A DNA stretch of 64,000 nucleotides, from positions 160,001-224,000 of the forward strand of contig NZ_JAQNDL010000001.1 in the NCBI RefSeq assembly GCF_028368995.1. Reading direction: 5' to 3'. The translations under genes and the position numbers were made by a program. Shown one piece after another: positions 48,439 to 57,697 of this stretch (position 1 is the first letter of the stretch; every line of letters starts with the position of its first letter). The stretch comes from Nannocystis bainbridge (GTDB taxonomy: Bacteria; Myxococcota_A; Polyangia; Nannocystales; Nannocystaceae). The notes under the pieces were generated by a model. It did not search any database, had not been told where the DNA came from, and worked only from the letters and a program-made list of their open reading frames with translations.

Positions 48439-49272
48439 TCACCCGACCAGCACGGTGCCGACGCTGCCCGGCGCGGCCGCCTCGGCCTGCAGCGCGCCCG
48501 CGTTGGCGCCGAGGATGTGCACTGCGCCGATCCCGAGGGCCAGGTTGGCCAGCGCCTCCTCGACCTTCGGGATCATGCCGCCGACGATCCCCTTCATCTC
48601 GATCGCGCCGCGGGCCTCGGCCGCGCTGAGGCGGGCGATCCGCGTGCTCGGGTCGTCCTTGTCGCGCAGCACCCCCGGCACGCCGGTCATGAGGAACAGG
48701 TGATCGACCTTCAGCGCGCCCGCGATCGCCGACGACACCGTGTCGGCGTTGATGTTGAAGACCGGGCAGGTGGAGCCCTCGGTGTCGAGCCCGACGCCGA
48801 GCGTGTTGATCACCGGCGTGTAACCGCCGGCCCACAGGTGCTCGATGAGCGCGGTGCGGATCTCGACGACGTCGCCGACCAGACCGAAGTCGACCAGCTC
48901 CTCGTCGCCGCCGCTGACGCGCGTGGGCGGACGTCGGCGCGCCGTCACCAGCCCCGCGCTCACGCCCGAGATCCCGAGCGCGCCGCCGAGCCCGGCCGCG
49001 AGCGCGGCCGCGACGACGTCGACCGAGAGCTCGCCGGCGAGCACGTACTTCATCACCTGCAGGGTCGCCGCGTCGGTGACCCGACGGCCGCCGACCTTGA
49101 CGGGCTGCAGCCCGAGCCGCTCCTGCAGCGCGTTGGCCTGCGGCCCGCCGCCGTGGCAGATGGCGAACTTCCAGCCGGCCGCGGTGAGCCGGGCGACGTC
49201 GCCGAGCACCGCCGCGAGGGCGGACGCGTCGGCGATGACTTCGCCGCCGAACTTGAGGACCGCCGTCGTCAT
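48439..49272 (-). CDS. argB: Acetylglutamate kinase
   Basis: LKFGG, HGGGPQ, GRRVTD, NINAD, GGMIPK. Confidence 0.95.
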   Translation of the reverse strand: MTTAVLKFGGEVIADASALAAVLGDVARLTAAGWKFAICHGGGPQANALQERLGLQPVKVGGRRVTDAATLQVMKYVLAGELSVDVVAAALAAGLGGALGISGVSAGLVTARRRPPTRVSGGDEELVDFGLVGDVVEIRTALIEHLWAGGYTPVINTLGVGLDTEGSTCPVFNINADTVSSAIAGALKVDHLFLMTGVPGVLRDKDDPSTRIARLSAAEARGAIEMKGIVGGMIPKVEEALANLALGIGAVHILGANAGALQAEAAAPGSVGTVLVG

Positions 49273-50333
49273 GGCCACAGCCCCGGGGCGTCGATGCCGG
49301 CCGTCTCCGCGAGCCCGAGCATCAGGTTCATCGACTGCACCGCCTGCCCTGCCCCGCCCTTGACGAGGTTGTCGAGCGCGGTGACCACCGCCAGCTGGCG
49401 CTGACCGGTCGCCGGATCGACCTGTCCCAAAGTCCAGGACAGGTCGACGTACATGCTGCCCTTGATCGCCACCACCTCGGCGCCGACCTTGCTGCCGAGC
49501 ACGCGCACGAACGGGGCATCGCGGTAGTACTCGCCGAACAGCGCCTTGACATCGAGGTCGCCCGGCACCGAGATGATGGTGGTCGCCAGGATCCCGCGCA
49601 CCAGCGGCGCCGAGACTGGCACGAATGCCAGCGAGAACGCCTCCCCGTGGCCGCCCGCCGCGTCGCGCAGGGCCTGCTCGATCTCCGGCGTGTGCTGGTG
49701 GTTCAACACCTTGTACGTCTTGAGGTTGCCGGCGCGCAGCGGGTGGTGCGTGCCGATCTGCGCGTAGGCCCCCGAGCCGGACGAGCCGGTCATCGCCACG
49801 GTGTGGATGGGTCCGCGCAGCAGCCCCGCGTGGGCCAGCGGCAGCAGACCGAGCGCGATCGCGGTGGCGAAGCAGCCCGGCGAGGCGACCCGACGGGCCT
49901 CGCGGATCGCCGCCTTGTGCAGCTCCGGCAGGCCGTAGGCCCACGTGCCGAGGTGCTCGGGGTGCGGGTGAACGTCGCCGTAGAAGGTCTTGTAGTCGTC
50001 CTTGTTGCGCAGGCGAAAGTCGCCCGACAGGTCGATCACCCGCGCCGGCACGTCGGCGAGCTCGCCGGCCATGGTCGCGCTGACCTTGTGCGGCAGCGCC
50101 AGGAACACCACATCGACATCGCGGGCGGCCTCGGCCGCGGGGATGTTCTCGAACACCAGGCCGGTCTTCGGCAGGTTGCGGTGCACCGCCTCGAGCGGCT
50201 CCCCGACCTGGTCGATGCTGGTCACCCGGACCAGGTCGACGCCGGGGTGCCAACGAAGTAACCGGATCAGCTCGGCGCCGCCGTAGCCAGTTCCGCCAAT
50301 AATCGTCACGCGTGGCCGCGAATTCGTGGACAT
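49269..50333 (-). CDS. argC: N-acetyl-gamma-glutamyl-phosphate reductase
   Basis: GGTGYGGAEL, FLALPH, IDLSGDFRL, YGLPEL, PGCFAT, DNLVKGGAGQAVQSMN. Confidence 0.97.
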   Translation of the reverse strand: MSTNSRPRVTIIGGTGYGGAELIRLLRWHPGVDLVRVTSIDQVGEPLEAVHRNLPKTGLVFENIPAAEAARDVDVVFLALPHKVSATMAGELADVPARVIDLSGDFRLRNKDDYKTFYGDVHPHPEHLGTWAYGLPELHKAAIREARRVASPGCFATAIALGLLPLAHAGLLRGPIHTVAMTGSSGSGAYAQIGTHHPLRAGNLKTYKVLNHQHTPEIEQALRDAAGGHGEAFSLAFVPVSAPLVRGILATTIISVPGDLDVKALFGEYYRDAPFVRVLGSKVGAEVVAIKGSMYVDLSWTLGQVDPATGQRQLAVVTALDNLVKGGAGQAVQSMNLMLGLAETAGIDAPGLWP

Positions 50334-50443
50334 GGGCTCTGTGCGGGACTTCCTAGCAGATGCCCGGGACCCGCGCGATGTCCGGCCTCGCCCGCGCACG
50401 ACATCGCTGTCATGGCCTGTCGCGGCGGCCGGCGGGCCAGGAC

Positions 50444-50496
50444 TGACAGCGGTGTCATACCGGCGCGGTGCGGGCCCGCTCATGACAACCTGTCAT
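50444..50496. promoter_or_regulatory. Two TGACA-N3/4-TGTCA dyads (putative upstream activator sites)
   Basis: TGACA-gcgg-TGTCA at 50444-50457 and ATGACA-acc-TGTCAT at 50482-50496, upstream of a sigma54-like box. Confidence 0.55.
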
Positions 50497-50521
50497 CAAT
50501 GATCTCGACGACTTGCCAACC

Positions 50522-50537
50522 TGGCTCGTGACCTGCA
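50522..50537 (+). promoter_or_regulatory. Putative sigma54 (-24/-12) promoter
   Basis: TGGCTCGTGACCTGCA: GG-N10-GC with exact spacing, close to TGGCAC-N5-TTGCW; predicted +1 near 50548. Confidence 0.6.
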
Positions 50538-50546
50538 CTCAGGGTC

Positions 50547-50802
50547 GGTGTCGCCGGAATGACGCCGTCGACCCTACTTACCTTAGCTCTTCTGCTTGGC
50601 CTTCTTTAGCTTCCTGCCTTACGTCGCTTATCGCTTGGCTTCGGCTTCTTCTGACTTGAACCTTCGCGCTCAACTTACCCGCTTCTCCTAACGTATCGAG
50701 TCGTTTGAGCTTGTCGCGCTTCGCTTGGTCGGTGCAGTAGCAACTTCTTAGATCTGGGGGGGGACCCGGGATGCTTTGGTCGGCATCTCGGGTTCTCGAT
50801 TT
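50547..50802 (+). ncRNA. Candidate ~250-nt ncRNA with ~22 CUU motifs between a 5' hairpin and a terminal hairpin
   Basis: 5' stem GGTGTCG/TGACGCC; 50581-50750 is ~52% GC by hand count, well below the surroundings, and pyrimidine-skewed; 3' stem ACCCGGGATGC/GCATCTCGGGT followed by TCTCGATTTT. Confidence 0.6.
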
Positions 50803-50860
50803 TAAGCCCCCGAACGCCAGGCTCGCGGACCTCAGCACCAGCCAGGCTCAGCCCCGCGGC

Positions 50861-51781
50861 TCAGTGCAGGTGGTCGTCGGGCTCGATCACGTGGTCGGCC
50901 AGCCGCTCGACCTGGTCGCGTCCGAGCAGCCCCTGCAGCGCCGATTCGAGCTCGGCGCGCCCGGGTTCACCTGTCCCGAGGGCCAGGTGTGAAGCCGCGA
51001 CCGCGAAATGCCCGCGCACCCCGCAGCGCTCGCCGAACGGCATCGCGTGGACCGCGGGCGCCCAGCCGTCGCGCGCCAGGCGCTCGTGGTCGGCCCGGAT
51101 CGGCCCGCCACACCGCGGACACACGAGCTCGCCCTGGGCCTCGCCGCGCCACAGTGTGATCAACGGATCGCGCCCGCCCGGCCGCGCGCCCGACCACCAG
51201 CGCGAGTCGAACGGCAGCACGCCCGCCAGCTCGCGCGGGAGCAGCCCCTCGGCCCGGAACCACGCGGCGCTGAGGTAGTACGCCGGGGCCTGCCGCTGCT
51301 CCTGCTCGCGGGCCTCGACGAACAGCGACGGCCGCTCGAAGTGCGGGTCGACCGACCACGAGGCCTCGAGCCGCTCGCGCATCGGCCCGCCCATGCGCGT
51401 GAAGCGATGACCGACGACCACGCGCGTGAGGCGGTCGGCGAACACCCACAGCACGTTGCTGAGCTTGTGCCAGGGGTCGATGTTGAGGTCGCAGACCTTG
51501 AGCTTGTCGCACGCGAGCCCCTCGCGCGCGCGCCAGACCGACACCAGCTTGAGCTCGATGCGGTCCTCCCAGTCGAGGTGATCGAGGCCGTCGTGCGGCT
51601 CGAGGCCGAAGTGCCACTGCAGCGCGCTGCCGAACCGCCCGCGTGAGCCGCGAGGCGCGACCAACTCGGCGGCTGGCCCCAAAGCCAGGCCGCGCGCGTG
51701 CTCGGCCAGCGCCTCGAGGTAGGCGCAGCGCAGCAGCGGCGCGTCGCGCCCGTGCGGCGGGTGGCGGAGCGGCAGCCGCAT
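50861..51781 (-). CDS. MutH/Sau3AI-like PD-(D/E)xK nuclease-fold protein with C-terminal Zn-ribbon
   Basis: RGRFGSALQWHFGL...LDWEDRIELKLV, HKLSNVLWV and AYYLS match MutH blocks (KGWxG..LG...D...ELK; HKLxxVLW; FYL); CPRC...H...C...H tail. Confidence 0.65.
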   Translation of the reverse strand: MRLPLRHPPHGRDAPLLRCAYLEALAEHARGLALGPAAELVAPRGSRGRFGSALQWHFGLEPHDGLDHLDWEDRIELKLVSVWRAREGLACDKLKVCDLNIDPWHKLSNVLWVFADRLTRVVVGHRFTRMGGPMRERLEASWSVDPHFERPSLFVEAREQEQRQAPAYYLSAAWFRAEGLLPRELAGVLPFDSRWWSGARPGGRDPLITLWRGEAQGELVCPRCGGPIRADHERLARDGWAPAVHAMPFGERCGVRGHFAVAASHLALGTGEPGRAELESALQGLLGRDQVERLADHVIEPDDHLH

Positions 51782-52025: not shown

Positions 52026-52412
52026 CTAGCACTCCGCGTCACGCGGCGGAAGTACGCGCTGGATCGGCACCGGACGGCCGCGGTCGTCGACCTGCACGTA
52101 GACCAGCTCGGCGGTGGTGACCTCGACGCTGCGCCCGCCGATCGGCTCTTGCGCCTCGACCCGTACGCGGATGGTCAGCGAACTCGAGCCGACGTCGGTG
52201 ACCTCGGCGAACAGGCTGACGATGTCGCCGACGTGCACCGGCTCCTTGAACACGACCTCGCGGACCGCCACCGTAACGACCTTGCGCGCGCCGATGGCGT
52301 GGGCCGCGACCGCCCCGGCCTGGTCGAGCAAGCTGAGGATGTGACCGCCGAAGATCGTGCCGTGCGCGTTGGTGTCGCGCGGCATCATCATGACCCGAAT
52401 CGCGGGCTGCAT
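52026..52412 (-). CDS. Acyl-CoA thioesterase (hotdog fold, YciA-like)
   Basis: MPRDTNAHGTIFGG, VVTVAV...FKEPVHVGD, VGSSS, YVQVDDRGRP. Confidence 0.92.
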   Translation of the reverse strand: MQPAIRVMMMPRDTNAHGTIFGGHILSLLDQAGAVAAHAIGARKVVTVAVREVVFKEPVHVGDIVSLFAEVTDVGSSSLTIRVRVEAQEPIGGRSVEVTTAELVYVQVDDRGRPVPIQRVLPPRDAEC

Positions 52413-52444
52413 GAGGCGGACGATGCGCCAAACGGCGCCGATTG

Positions 52445-52912
52445 TCACGCGGACGGGCGCCCGACGGCGCGCTGGATGGCGGCGTGGATCGTGTCGGCGT
52501 CGGCGTAGTCGGGGCAGTAGCTGAGCGCTGGATCTCGCTCCGACAGCGCGCGGAAGCGCCGCTCCTCCGCGCCGAAGTCGTACGACAGGATCACCGGCCC
52601 GCGGAAGCCGGCGTCGCGCAGGGCCCGGAGCACGAACAGGCCCTGGTTGTCCTGCTGGAACGCGCGCGCGCGGGCGACGTCGCCGTTGAAGCGGGCCGTC
52701 AGCGCCACGAGGTCGCCGAGCAGCGCCTCGATCGGCGTGCGGTCGAAGCGCATGTCGAGGTACACGAGGTCCGGCTGCAACGACGCCAGCAGCGCGCACG
52801 CCTGCTCGCCGCTCTTGGCCTGCGTGTAGCGGATCCCCCGCGACACGAAGGTCGAGAGGTTGGTCAGATATTCGTCCCCGTCCTCGACGACGAGGACCTT
52901 GATCTCGCTCAT
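52445..52912 (-). CDS. Atypical single-domain response regulator
   Basis: VLVVEDG, PDLVYLD; long insertion before QGL; no evident conserved Lys. Confidence 0.75.
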   Translation of the reverse strand: MSEIKVLVVEDGDEYLTNLSTFVSRGIRYTQAKSGEQACALLASLQPDLVYLDMRFDRTPIEALLGDLVALTARFNGDVARARAFQQDNQGLFVLRALRDAGFRGPVILSYDFGAEERRFRALSERDPALSYCPDYADADTIHAAIQRAVGRPSA

Positions 52913-55908
52913 GGCCCCTCCTCCACGGTGAAGAACCGCAGCACGACGGCCTTCTGCCAGCCGCGCTCGGGTTCGACGGCGATCGAGCCGTCGTAGCGCG
53001 ACAGGAGGTCGGCGGTGATGCCCATGCCGCGCTCGACGTAGCGACCGCGGAGCATCTCGTTGCTGAGCTGCTCGGTCGAGCGATCCTTGATGCGGATCGC
53101 CAGCGTCGACAAACCAGTGATCTCGTCCATCTCGGTGACGAGGTCGATGCCGAGGGCGATCGGCTTCGGCCCGTACAGCACGCTCGACTGCAGCGAGTTG
53201 CGCAGCACGTTGGTGACGATGTCCTCGAGGTCGCTGTGGAACACGCGGATCTTGGCGCCCTCGCCGTCGATCTGCGGCTCGGCGATCTGGACCGTGGCGA
53301 ACTGCGGCTCGGCGACCACCTGGGCGAAGATCTCACGGATCGTGGCCGGATCGACGGCGACGATGCACAGCGAACGGATGACGCCCGACAGCTCCTCGAA
53401 CGCCTTGCGGCCGAGGACGTGGCCGCTGCGACCGAGCCGGCGCGCCCACTCCAGCTTGAGCGCGTGACGCTCGCGGCTCGGCGCCCGCTGCAGGCCCTCG
53501 AGCCCGCGCAGGTCCTCGAAGGCGGCGATCATGGCGCTGAAGATCGGGTCCTTGCGGTAGAGGTTGAGGTTGATGTTGTGGCTGCGGCCGACCTTCTGCA
53601 GCTCGTCGACGTAGCCGAGGAAGCGCCCATGGATCCCGCGCTCGCGCAGCGAGACGCGGCCCGGAACCGGGGTGGCCTCGTTGCGATCGCGCGGGGCGCC
53701 GAACAGGCGGGCGGCGACGACGGCGGTGCGCGCCTCGGCGTCGGGCTCGTCCATCTCGAGCGCGCGGCCGACGTCGGCCAGGAAGGAGGTGTTGTGCTTG
53801 AGGATCTCGTGGCGAATGAGGCTCAAGATCCGCGCGACCTCGGGGAAGCTCTTCGGCGCCCGCTCGAGCATCTGCGTCAGCGAGGCGCCGCGCAGCCGGC
53901 GATAGACCTGCCACGCCGGGATCGCCACCAGCAGCAGCGCGAGCGCCCCGGCGCCGAGGTAGATGCGCAGGAAGGTCGCGTCCATGCGATCGCGCAGGCG
54001 GTGCGCGGCGTCCCAGTGGAGGTTGTACTCGTCGGCCTCGCGCAAGAACTGGTCGAGCTGCTCCGAGGCCTCGATCAGGTGGTAGTCGTCCCACAGCCGC
54101 TTGGCCAGGCGAAAGCGGGCGGTGGCCGATCCGAGCTCGGCGGCGCGGCGCAGGTGCACGGTCGACTGCGCCGGCAGGTCGCCCTCGAGCAGGATGCCGA
54201 GCCGCTCGTGGACCTCCATCTGCTCCTCGGCGAGCGCGAGGCTCTGCTCCCAGAACTGACGCGCGTCGCCGGTGCGGCCCTGGGCGTACACGACCTTGGC
54301 GAGCTCGTTGTAGACGACCGGCTCGCTGCGAAACCGCTCGCGCGCGCGCTGCAGGATCTTCTCGGCCTGGTTGAGGTCGCCTTCTTCGGAGACGCGCAGG
54401 TAGGCCTCGTTGATCATGCGCTGCAGCGAGGGATCGAGCCGCTGCAAGTTGTCGGGCGGCTCGTTGAGGTAGAGCGGCTCTTCGGGGCTGACCTCCTGCG
54501 TGAGGTCCTTCAGCGCGCGCTCGGCCTGCGGACGATCGGGGTCGTCGTCGGGCGCGGTGCGGAGGAACCGCTCATAGTGCCGCCGCGCGGCCTCGCGGTT
54601 CTCGCGGGCGTTGAGCTCGCCGAGCAAGATGTGGAGGTGATGCAGGTCGGGCCGCAGCAGCAGCGCCTTCTCGAGGTGCTCGATGGCCCGCACGTCCTCG
54701 GCGCCGGCGAACTGCTTCTTGTAGACGAGGCCGAGAGCCATGTGCGCCTCGTAGTCGAAGCGATCCATGCGCACGGCGAGCTTGAGCTGATCGACGGCCT
54801 TGGGGATCCGGCCCTTGCGGGCGTAGATGACGCCGAGGGTGTAGTGCGCCTTGGGGTACCACGGCGAGTTCTCGATCGCGACCAGCAGGTCGCGCTCGGC
54901 GGCGTCGAGGTCGCCGCCGCGCATCGAGGTGAGCGCGCGCCGGTAGCTCTGCTCGGCGAACTCGCTCGGCCGCCCGCCCTGCTCCTTCTCGAGCTTGTTG
55001 AGCTCGACCTGCAGCCGCAGCTCGTCGACCTGCTCCTTGGCCCGCTTGGCCAGCGGAGTACCCGGGTAGGCGCCGCTGAGCTCCTCGTTGATGGCGATCG
55101 CGGCCTCGATGTCGTTCTGCTCGAGCAGCAGGTCGGCCTGCAACCGCAGGGCGTCGGCGCCCGGCTTGCGCCCGCCGGCGACGCACTCGCGGCGGTAGAG
55201 GTCGAGCTGCTTGAGCGCCGCCTCGCGCTGGCTGTCGCGCTCGCGGGTCGAGGCGGCCTTCTCGGCCTGGCGGTTGAGCAAGGCGGCGACGGTGAAGCGG
55301 ATCTCCGGCGGCCGACCCTCGGTGCGCGGGTCCTGCTCGGCGATCTCGAGCGCGAGGTTGAGGCGCTCGTCGTCGTAGCGCTCCTCGCAGCGGCCCATCC
55401 ACTCGACGAGGGTGCGCCGCTCGGCCAGCCACAAGCCGCGCGGGTCGTAGGTGCGCAGCAGCTTGAGGTCGTCGATCGCCCGCCGCGGGCAGGTGTTCTC
55501 GCGCGCGCGACGGGCCCGCAAGTAGGCCCGCCCGCGCAGCGCCCCGGGGTCGCCGGGCTGGAGCTTGAGCGCGTTGTTGTACTCGCGCAGGGCGTCGTCC
55601 GCCCGCCCCTCGCGCTCGAGCCGGGTGGCCCGGCTCATGCTGATGTCGAACTGCTCCATCCGCTGCTCGGGGGTCAGCCCGCCGGGCTCGTCGAAGCCGG
55701 CGCTGTCGTCCTCGGGTGGCAGCGGCAGCTCGGCCAGCGGGTCGTAGACCGGCTTGATGGTGCTCTCTTCGGCCTTGCCGGGCTTCTTGACGGCCTTGCT
55801 GGCGGTCGGGGCGGGCGCGGCCGCGGCGAGGCTCGGGCTGGCGATGAGGACATGTGCGAAGAGACATGCCCCAAGGAGCCTTGCCGATCGGACATGTCCC
55901 TTGCGCAT
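52909..55908 (-). CDS. TPR-repeat membrane protein with degenerate histidine-kinase module
   Basis: Signal peptide, many TPRs, one TM helix, LIRHEILKH, NVLRNSLQ, IKDRS, RGMG; start uncertain (ORF extends to 55974). Confidence 0.75.
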   Translation of the reverse strand: MRKGHVRSARLLGACLFAHVLIASPSLAAAAPAPTASKAVKKPGKAEESTIKPVYDPLAELPLPPEDDSAGFDEPGGLTPEQRMEQFDISMSRATRLEREGRADDALREYNNALKLQPGDPGALRGRAYLRARRARENTCPRRAIDDLKLLRTYDPRGLWLAERRTLVEWMGRCEERYDDERLNLALEIAEQDPRTEGRPPEIRFTVAALLNRQAEKAASTRERDSQREAALKQLDLYRRECVAGGRKPGADALRLQADLLLEQNDIEAAIAINEELSGAYPGTPLAKRAKEQVDELRLQVELNKLEKEQGGRPSEFAEQSYRRALTSMRGGDLDAAERDLLVAIENSPWYPKAHYTLGVIYARKGRIPKAVDQLKLAVRMDRFDYEAHMALGLVYKKQFAGAEDVRAIEHLEKALLLRPDLHHLHILLGELNARENREAARRHYERFLRTAPDDDPDRPQAERALKDLTQEVSPEEPLYLNEPPDNLQRLDPSLQRMINEAYLRVSEEGDLNQAEKILQRARERFRSEPVVYNELAKVVYAQGRTGDARQFWEQSLALAEEQMEVHERLGILLEGDLPAQSTVHLRRAAELGSATARFRLAKRLWDDYHLIEASEQLDQFLREADEYNLHWDAAHRLRDRMDATFLRIYLGAGALALLLVAIPAWQVYRRLRGASLTQMLERAPKSFPEVARILSLIRHEILKHNTSFLADVGRALEMDEPDAEARTAVVAARLFGAPRDRNEATPVPGRVSLRERGIHGRFLGYVDELQKVGRSHNINLNLYRKDPIFSAMIAAFEDLRGLEGLQRAPSRERHALKLEWARRLGRSGHVLGRKAFEELSGVIRSLCIVAVDPATIREIFAQVVAEPQFATVQIAEPQIDGEGAKIRVFHSDLEDIVTNVLRNSLQSSVLYGPKPIALGIDLVTEMDEITGLSTLAIRIKDRSTEQLSNEMLRGRYVERGMGITADLLSRYDGSIAVEPERGWQKAVVLRFFTVEEGP
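55848..55907. repeat. Array of the 14-bp palindrome (3-4 units) overlapping the signal-peptide coding region
   Basis: ggaca|tgtgc-gaag-agaca|tgccc-caag-gagcc|ttgcc-gatc-ggaca|tgtcc. Confidence 0.75.
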
Positions 55909-55990
55909 GGTCGCTGGCGCGCCCGGGTGACGGGGCCCGGTCAGGATAGCAGACGCGGGCGAGCAGCGACGCATGGTCGGCGGGCCCCCC

Positions 55991-57697
<1,707 letters not shown>

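Follow-up and report, generated by a model that had tools for sequence, protein, structure and literature searches.

A predicted small RNA gene of the Nannocystaceae with a sigma-54-type promoter and a CUU-rich repeat zone

Small regulatory RNAs (sRNAs) transcribed from sigma-54 promoters include CrcZ, GlmY, Qrr, and Pxr. CrcZ and CrcY of Pseudomonas, which are driven by sigma-54 and CbrB, sequester Hfq/Crc, and CsrB, RsmY, and RsmZ are decoys of CsrA/RsmA that carry repeats of GGA. The promoter of Pxr is linked to sigma-54 and has an NtrC-like activator as a neighbour. According to two papers, GlmY of enterobacteria is a sigma-54/GlrR-dependent decoy RNA for RapZ (PMC3045617, PMC7073468). Myxobacteria have very few known regulatory RNAs. 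A review names Pxr, restricted there to the Cystobacterineae, and an RNA survey of Myxococcus (PMC8538405). Here we describe, in a window of 64,000 nucleotides (nt) of DNA from Nannocystis bainbridge (positions 160,001 to 224,000 of contig NZ_JAQNDL010000001.1; unless a contig is named, coordinates are positions in this window), what comparative sequence analysis indicates is an undescribed small non-coding RNA gene, conserved across the family Nannocystaceae and specific to it. An initial annotation of the window, made from the letters alone, had proposed at this place an unannotated sigma54-type unit producing a non-coding RNA from the + strand, and promoter geometry, the presence of rpoN, a syntenic activator gene, a covarying hairpin, an inverted copy of the cassette, and contigs from RNA libraries together give this strong support. 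The predicted complete transcription unit, with promoter, RNA body, and 3' hairpin, spans 50400-50803 (+) and lies in a 527-nt gap separating two minus-strand genes, argC and a 306-codon gene for a MutH-like protein. The RNA region is single-copy in the N. bainbridge genome, and a full-text literature search turned up no such RNA for Nannocystaceae.

In five congeners the locus was 81-86% identical over ~410 nt, with near-invariant promoter and 3' parts around a variable middle. With a covariance model built from the G run, hairpin, and tail of the 3' module, we found a single full-length copy per genome in 38 of the 73 genomes of the family (a search at the level of the order gave the same 73 genomes), and the rebuilt model matched nothing among 133 genomes from 29 further families of the class. 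Five genomes negative with the model were examined, and all five proved to have this layout at the syntenic site, lacking the G run; the layout was likewise present in two genomes that the models missed or matched partly (G023 and G050). The element was present, as a single copy, in all 13 genera inspected, with 17 genera sampled, and the public-record loci of the family came from Nannocystis, Enhygromyxa, Paraliomyxa, and many metagenome bins. Conserved CUU enrichment at the syntenic locus, which the initial annotation had anticipated, was searched for and found as a CTT-dense zone on the expected strand at 51 of 59 species loci, the 59 being those whose sequence extends 400 nt or more past the neighbouring gene, and most of the zones had a GG-N10-GC just upstream. 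At one public-record locus (L128) we saw AAG density instead of CTT density, and this locus may be inverted in the same way as that of genome G018, described below.

The predicted RNA is ~256 nt long and occupies 50548..50803 (+), its 5' end placed from the promoter box and its 3' end from the terminal hairpin and U run, so that both exact ends are inferred from sequence. Its last part is as first described: a run of eight G (50756..50763, +) is followed by a terminator-like hairpin of 11 base pairs (bp) at 50764-50793 (+), with arms at 50764-50774 and 50783-50793 and the loop UUUGGUCG at 50775-50782, and by the T-rich tail UCUC-GA-UUUU (+), of which the U run at 50800-50803 ends the predicted RNA. 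Across the homologues, 97.2% of 252 cells of the terminal stem were paired, vs 33-48% with slid partners, and compensatory changes were seen in four of the nine pairs. The same 252 cells included 20 G.U and one A.C; G.U cells would be mismatches on the minus strand and therefore support the + strand. All 30 model matches carried a run of 5-9 G, which is missing in four genera, and in 30/30 the four bases 3' of the stem were pyrimidines that can pair with the last four G, making a stem of 16 bp in the fold. Immediately upstream, the 3' domain (50697..50755, +) was nearly invariant in six congeners and was the sole part of the RNA that could be aligned across genera. It contains GGUCGGUGC at 50727-50735, which was recognisable in all genera inspected either as such or as a close variant (GGUUGGUGC in one genus), is predicted to be single-stranded between the 3' hairpins, and carries a UGGUC word related to the repeat motif discussed below. 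The UGGUC of the terminator loop, as a UUGGUC loop, was kept in every genus inspected. We also observed that UGGUCGG (50727-50733 and 50777-50783) is complementary to CCGACCA, the last seven bases of those proline transfer RNA (tRNA) genes that encode the CCA end. Pairing with tRNA 3' ends was dropped as a candidate function, the match being short and within chance and the acceptor stem having to open.

The inverted copy is that of genome G018 (locus L036), where the entire cassette is flipped with respect to the genes on either side and its terminator lies on the argC strand, ~50 nt upstream of that gene. The CTT strand there is the coding strand of argC, which removes an AAG-rich minus-strand leader of argC, the main alternative named in the initial annotation. 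In three other genomes (G054, G055, and G022) the unit and its upstream sites were kept with argC absent from the 1.5 kilobases (kb) upstream. Promoter, body, and hairpin travel together as one cassette. A minus-strand open reading frame (ORF) of 86 codons covers the region in N. bainbridge; only 49-67 codons were open in the five congeners, and the translated ORF had no Pfam match. Differences in zone length between the congeners were 21, 13, 27, 13, and -5 nt, which are not multiples of three. At the level of sequence comparison, the G.U pairs, the inverted cassette, and the frame-breaking indels exclude both an argC leader and a coding region.

The RNA was also represented in public RNA libraries, of which 16 runs from nine studies were considered (word shares 0.04-0.09) and four were compared over a 1.6-kb stretch. 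Two soil metatranscriptomes from two studies (X10 and X13) each contained one near-identical contig lying inside the predicted RNA, one matching 50576-50754 with two differences and the other 50605-50758 with one difference, and both crossed the species-specific zone. In these two runs argC, the neighbouring gene, and the promoter were uncovered on the 1.6-kb stretch, where lack of coverage proves nothing. The two contigs end at 50754 and 50758, at the G8 run, past which contigs of two other runs continue (X1, which is probably DNA, and X7); this hints at most weakly at a 3' terminus or processing there and may equally reflect assembly breaks at the G run. Run X7 also covers argC and the neighbouring gene from a related species, and may contain DNA.

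Upstream of the predicted start lies a sigma-54-type -24/-12 box, TGGCTCGTGACCTGCA (TGGC-N8-TGCA, or GG-N10-GC), at 50522..50537 (+), with GG at 50523-4 and GC at 50535-6; it had been called correctly spaced, which places +1 near 50548. The spacing of GG and GC was constant in 35/35 homologous loci, and the eight bases between them varied. Because the boxes in the 35 genomes were located by pattern, and their presence was hence partly selected, the weight of the promoter call lies in the constant position of the box relative to independently conserved flanks. All 35 promoters had exactly two sites resembling GACAT-N4-GTCAT, one located 71-94 nt and the other 114-138 nt upstream of the GG, their separation being 43-45 nt in every case; in N. 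bainbridge these are a distal activator-type site GACAT-N4-GTCA at 50400..50412 (+) and a proximal one at 50445..50457 (+), each aligned in 35/35 promoters. By the spacing of proximal site and box the promoters fell into two classes, ~71 and ~82 nt, which differ by ~11 nt or one helical turn. Such a geometry of sites and box is as expected for an enhancer-binding protein acting on sigma-54. Both of the TGACA dyads first pointed out were present. The first (TGACA-N4-TGTCA, 50444-50457) is the proximal site; the other (TGACA-N3-TGTCA, 50483..50495, +) was invariant in six same-genus sequences and unrecognisable in other genera, and is thus a feature of close relatives only. The unit had been started at 50444, which leaves the family-wide distal site just outside. 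Between the dyads and the promoter, a conserved element with the column consensus ATTTCAAc...TTGcca over the 35 promoters (50499..50519, +) abuts the -24 box and is presumably similar to a site for integration host factor. No sigma-70-like promoter was called on either strand between 50200 and 51000. Just past the predicted start, a hairpin at 50550..50572 (+) was found in the minimum-free-energy fold as an interrupted stem of 4+3 bp where a 7-bp hairpin had been reported, and most of the 35 homologues start a hairpin within the first few nucleotides, with sequences that differ. In the genome at large, GACA-N5-GTCA[T/C] occurred 226 times vs ~76 expected, and 32 of these then have a loose GG-N10-GC. 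The sole other regulon look-alike, at C1:3841036, had its box overlapping a start codon and was judged to be due to chance.

The genome encodes rpoN, with one Sigma54_DBD match, and this single gene lies at G000:C1:245586-246062, ~35 kb from the RNA gene. It also contains at least 30 activator genes, there being 30 Sigma54_activat matches at E<=1e-20, of which the one nearest to the RNA is within the window at 55991..57697 (-) and encodes a response-regulator enhancer-binding protein (Pfam Response_reg and Sigma54_activat). Orthologs of this activator, 66-71% identical, were located 4-6 kb from the RNA or its neighbouring gene in all five genomes checked, which represent four genera, and at E<=1e-120 an ortholog was found in 13/13 genomes of the family and in 0/107 genomes of other families. 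In genome G050, the RNA is 4.3 kb from the activator gene while the MutH-like gene is on another contig. The activator loop reads GAYTGA, where the usual form is GAFTGA. This family-specific response regulator is, from these genomic associations, the best candidate for the regulator of the RNA, whose gene would depend on sigma-54 and an activator. The activator gene, a gene for a tetratricopeptide repeat (TPR) protein (52909-55974), a thioesterase-domain gene (52026-53336), and the MutH-like gene form a same-strand run that may be one operon.

The body of the RNA had been described as a low-GC, pyrimidine-skewed stretch with 22 CTT triplets across reading frames, and so it is: the stretch is 51% GC, in a genome of 71.5% GC, and 68% pyrimidine, and 22 CTT occur in 50575-50750 in phases of 10/8/4. 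Over the whole interval 50444-50802 there were 24 CTT, with 10-11 occurrences of GCTT. Genome windows of 175 nt contain on average 1.2-1.5 CTT (standard deviation 1.3-1.5), vs 22 at the RNA locus. Among the 14 loci of the 11-Mb (megabase) genome that are densest in CTT/AAG, 12 were lysine-rich coding repeats whose CTT fell almost entirely in a single phase (with one split 15/9), one was an (ACTT)n array, and the last was the RNA locus, which alone had CTT in all three phases together with stop codons. The 12 coding loci are Ala/Lys-rich repeat genes of the KKAAKK type, for example at C1:4369848 and C3:1710964.

For word statistics, we compared the repeat zones of 29 RNAs (base composition A 0.12, C 0.33, G 0.20, U 0.35) with dinucleotide-preserving shuffles. 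CTT was observed 532 times vs 356 expected (z 16; z=9.3 with 14 representative genomes), TGGCTT 83 times vs 6.4 (z 28.4), and CYUGGYYU 90 times vs 4.3 (z 42.6). Other words were depleted, namely CUUU (66 vs 143, z -9.5), CUC (146 vs 239.8, z -9.8), AAG (11 vs 24.2, z -3.3), and also UCU. Anchored on UGG, the consensus was C 0.71, U 0.67, UGG, C 0.72, U 0.63, and U 0.92, and we take the underlying repeat, as deduced from these alignments, to be CUUGGCUU. CUU is enriched as first proposed, and the underlying repeat unit is longer. In N. bainbridge the unstructured CUU/CUUGGCUU zone is at 50575..50696 (+), with 17 CTT in 121 nt, and Tandem Repeats Finder reported no array in 50350-50900, the motif copies being dispersed in this genome. 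Regular arrays of CCUGACUUGGCUUC or YUUGGCUUC with ~10-15 near-identical units were seen at four other loci (L062 of G023, and L047-L049 of G082, G086, and G079). Each RNA had 12-35 CUU (median 22), and the CUU nucleotides were predicted to be unpaired at 0.68 vs 0.45 in the rest of the zone and 0.34 in the 3' domain, an order that held in 29/29 RNAs. The CTT spacing peaked at 5 nt, with multiples of three not favoured. Predicted RNA length was 214-484 nt in 29 genomes, the zone itself varying ~fourfold, and the RNA as a whole showed no greater stability than its shuffled versions (z +0.6). The zone could not be aligned between genera, and both its length and its copy number vary; the motif nevertheless persists.

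Both neighbours of the RNA are genes on the opposite strand. The divergent neighbour argC (49269..50333, -), with Pfam semialdehyde dehydrogenase domains, lies outside the RNA and adjoins it in 26 of 30 loci: in 25 of these it is upstream and divergent, and in G018 it follows the RNA on the RNA's own strand. Directly after argC, at ~48439-49218 (-), is an argB-like gene (KFGGE...HGGGPQ) concealed within an open frame of 604 codons, which overlaps argC in a different frame. Several genera have argB in place of argC as the divergent neighbour of the RNA. We rejected this as an independent link to arginine, because argB adjoins the RNA in those genera through loss of argC from between them. The convergent neighbour (50861..51781, -) adjoins the RNA in 28 of 30 loci, G050 not being among them, and encodes a protein of nuclease fold. 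It had been labelled mutH-like, and the label holds: the AlphaFold2 model has a mean predicted local distance difference test (pLDDT) of 90.8, and MutH chain 2aor_B was its sole match in the Protein Data Bank at E<=0.001 (E 1.9e-5). The protein carries an invariant D...E.K motif and, at its C-terminus, a CxRC...C...H cluster, and it matches nothing in Pfam or NCBIfam; its gene was found in 13/13 Nannocystaceae genomes and 0/107 genomes of other families of the class.

Elsewhere in the genome, 6S RNA (RF00013) is encoded at G000:C3:1216457-1216640. We also noted ~23 tRNA genes within 2.6 kb at G000:C2:2556665-2559233, a second array rich in leucine tRNA genes at C2:2356727-2357509, and a genome total of 102 predicted tRNAs, some of them probably spurious, all called by ARAGORN.

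As to function, the reading that we favour, with a probability of roughly 0.4, is that the RNA may be a decoy for an RNA-binding factor and would release the targets of that factor when the activator is switched on. The many accessible copies of the motif, their variable number and order, the structured 3' end, the switched promoter, and the lack of a downstream gene all favour a decoy. In the mechanism that we propose, sigma-54 RNA polymerase would sit at the GG-N10-GC box until an enhancer-binding protein, for which the family-specific activator encoded 5 kb away is the best candidate, opened the promoter from the two GACAT-N4-GTCAT sites ~95-110 and 140-150 nt upstream of the start. Transcription would end at the hairpin and short U run. 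The RNA so made would display 12-35 single-stranded CUU, several of them as the 8-mer CUUGGCUU, together with the related UGGUC, shown both in the loop of the terminator and in the stretch that separates the 3' hairpins, and it would bind many copies of an RNA-binding factor, whose other targets would be freed when the activator is on. Such a mechanism would parallel those of CsrB/RsmZ and CrcZ, with another motif and another protein. We consider it a tentative and somewhat doubtful extension of this that the RNA is the titrating arm of a new global post-transcriptional system, in a lineage without Hfq, in which a protein recognising CUUGGCUU/UGGUC, a pyrimidine-flanked GG unlike any known bacterial decoy motif, would be sequestered when the family-specific two-component activator fires, with the MutH-like protein, whose co-inherited gene lies tail-to-tail to that of the RNA, as a possible partner. 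Known proteins and ribosomal mimicry did not account for the motif. A sponge for CsrA was rejected, GGA being depleted. Cold-shock proteins prefer CUUU, which was depleted as given above, so that a motif of that type was also set aside. An anti-Shine-Dalgarno mimic was rejected on counts of eight CCTCC vs 16.9 expected and 49 CTCC vs 65.1 expected.

Several observations speak against parts of this picture. The library contigs show no strand, ends, or level, and RNA libraries can contain DNA; therefore they support the presence of the sequence in RNA preparations and are not proof of a transcript. The window contained six matches to TGGC-N8-TGCA vs 1.69 expected, so a lone match is not rare, and the promoter call depends on conservation. 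For the 5' hairpin, single folds gave a mean z of -0.68, with 13/35 below -1, which is not statistically distinct, and an alignment fold of the 35 5' regions yielded no consensus hairpin because the MAFFT alignment was poor; given these weak statistics, the hairpin is claimed descriptively only. A strict terminator scan gave zero sites at the RNA 3' end, being silent because the tail has only four U. An adjacent zone was absent at eight of the 59 loci that hold the neighbouring gene, and the counts across genomes overstate the support because relatives are not independent. With respect to the partner, Hfq had no match when the genome, 90% complete, was searched in six frames, and CsrA is encoded but its GGA motif was depleted in the zone (18 vs 40.8 +- 5.3 expected, z -4.3). 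Lastly, a repeated accessible motif fits base pairing at many sites equally well.

That last point leads to the main rival of the decoy, a multi-seed RNA whose CUU, CUUGGC, and GGCUUC words would pair with mRNAs rich in AAG, GCCAAG, and GAAGCC, mainly those of the Ala/Lys-rich repeat-protein genes, and would repress or stabilise them or else be titrated by them. We judge this unlikely, even though Hfq-independent pairing RNAs exist, the motifs are predicted to be single-stranded, self-pairing seems to be avoided through the depletion of AAG, and the genome windows richest in complementary 6-mers were all Ala/Lys/Pro/Glu-rich coding repeats. The 5-nt peak of the CTT spacing means that codon repeats are not tracked, pairing with AAG would not call for an 8-mer as specific as CYUGGYYU, and a whole-genome antisense search stayed at chance level (best match 16 nt, E 0.53; the rest E 2-33). 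The initial annotation had left the choice between a protein sponge and a multi-seed RNA; motif statistics and architecture fit the former, and no target of the latter rose above chance. Its more specific suggestion of pairing with AAG-rich ribosome-binding regions found no support: anti-Shine-Dalgarno-like words such as CCTCC were not enriched. Comparably improbable in our estimation is a trans-acting sRNA that would work through its 3' domain (GGUCGGUGC and the UUGGUCR loop), with the CUU zone as a flexible, structure-free spacer that sets stability, for example by giving RNase E or Rho a place to enter. It is true that no part except the 3' domain could be aligned across genera, that this domain is near-invariant within the genus, that the zone varies ~fourfold in length, and that a C-rich, G-poor composition like that of the zone would favour Rho loading. 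Composition alone, however, leaves unexplained the 20-fold excess of the 8-mer, the depletion of CUUU, CUC, and UCU, and why the motif persists where the zone cannot be aligned.

Two further readings would do away with a trans-acting RNA altogether. A cis element, be it a minus-strand leader of argC, a bidirectional terminator or antisense on the MutH-like operon, or a control region for arg genes, could draw on the two activator-type sites, which lie 67-125 nt upstream of the argC start and could affect argC too, on a hairpin that is 58 nt past the stop of the converging gene, and on the unit of G018 having the orientation of argC and ending 50 nt before it. The AAG leader, however, is not conserved in G018, the promoter and upstream sites outlast argC in G054, G055, and G022, the G.U pairs fit the + strand only, and the cassette moves as one, all of which makes a cis element highly improbable and disposes of the argC leader in particular. 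We give still less credence to the proposition that there is no RNA feature here at all and that the locus is what remains of a decayed lysine-rich coding sequence, a gene for a small protein, or an array of sites for a DNA-binding protein. All other CTT/AAG-dense loci in the genome are indeed lysine-rich coding or simple repeats, and the 86-codon minus-strand ORF does overlap the region, but this ORF is unconserved, without a Pfam match, and disrupted in the congeners by indels that are not multiples of three. Moreover, the motifs all point in one direction, with a conserved promoter before them and a covarying hairpin after them, RNA libraries contain near-identical contigs, and a remnant would not be expected to be kept in 13 genera with its motif renewed.

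With few regulatory RNAs known in myxobacteria, the Nannocystaceae element offers a clean family-wide candidate. A decoy role would imply an RNA-binding regulator of novel specificity in these bacteria, where Hfq was not found and the CsrA motif is avoided in the RNA, and would give a direct handle for finding that protein. Should the MutH-like protein be the partner, the system would amount to an RNA-controlled nuclease. The element would also be a fifth independent case of a sigma-54-driven sRNA, after CrcZ, GlmY, Qrr, and Pxr, and a fifth case strengthens the view that enhancer-dependent promoters are preferred for tight on/off switching of regulatory RNAs.

The absence of a match to known RNA families, as stated in the initial annotation, was confirmed: no Rfam family reached its gathering score in the window or in seven divergent loci, a permissive Rfam search of 50250-50950 gave chance-level matches only (E>=1.5), and no tRNA or transfer-messenger RNA (tmRNA) was found in the window. 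In overall design the element resembles CrcZ/CrcY, whose sigma-54 promoters likewise have sites upstream at which a response-regulator activator binds, and which are also RNAs of several hundred nt with many short single-stranded motifs and no downstream gene. Their motifs, however, are A-rich, whereas the Nannocystis zone is 12% A with the motif CUU/CUUGGCUU; their partner is Hfq/Crc, whereas Hfq was not found here; and there is neither an Rfam match nor a taxonomic relationship. The CsrB/RsmY/RsmZ RNAs share repeated motifs in single strands and loops, a copy number that varies between species, a terminator hairpin, and the display of the motif in a conserved loop, as in the Nannocystaceae RNA. 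They differ in their GGA (ANGGA) motifs, GGA being depleted here, in forming a chain of hairpins in contrast to a largely unstructured zone, in the promoter, which here is of sigma-54 type, and in the lack of a covariance-model match. Tandem long direct repeats upstream of a same-strand toxin gene characterise the ToxI-like RNAs of type III toxin-antitoxin systems; the N. bainbridge locus has no tandem array, and its nuclease-fold neighbour is convergent, not downstream on the same strand. Pxr of Myxococcus is likewise myxobacterial, non-coding, lineage-restricted, and under sigma-54-type control with an activator gene nearby, but it is short, with three stem-loops and no repeat zone, it has no sequence or model match to the RNA described here, and its lineage is not that of the Nannocystaceae. 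GlmY, as presented in the papers cited above, is also a sigma-54-dependent sRNA that acts by protein titration and not by base pairing, but it mimics one structured RNA, GlmZ, with no repeated short motif and no homology to the present RNA. By motif, model match, partner, and taxon, the Nannocystaceae RNA falls outside the CrcZ, CsrB/RsmZ, and Pxr families. Its general kind is known, but as an RNA family it is new, in its motif and most likely also in its partner.

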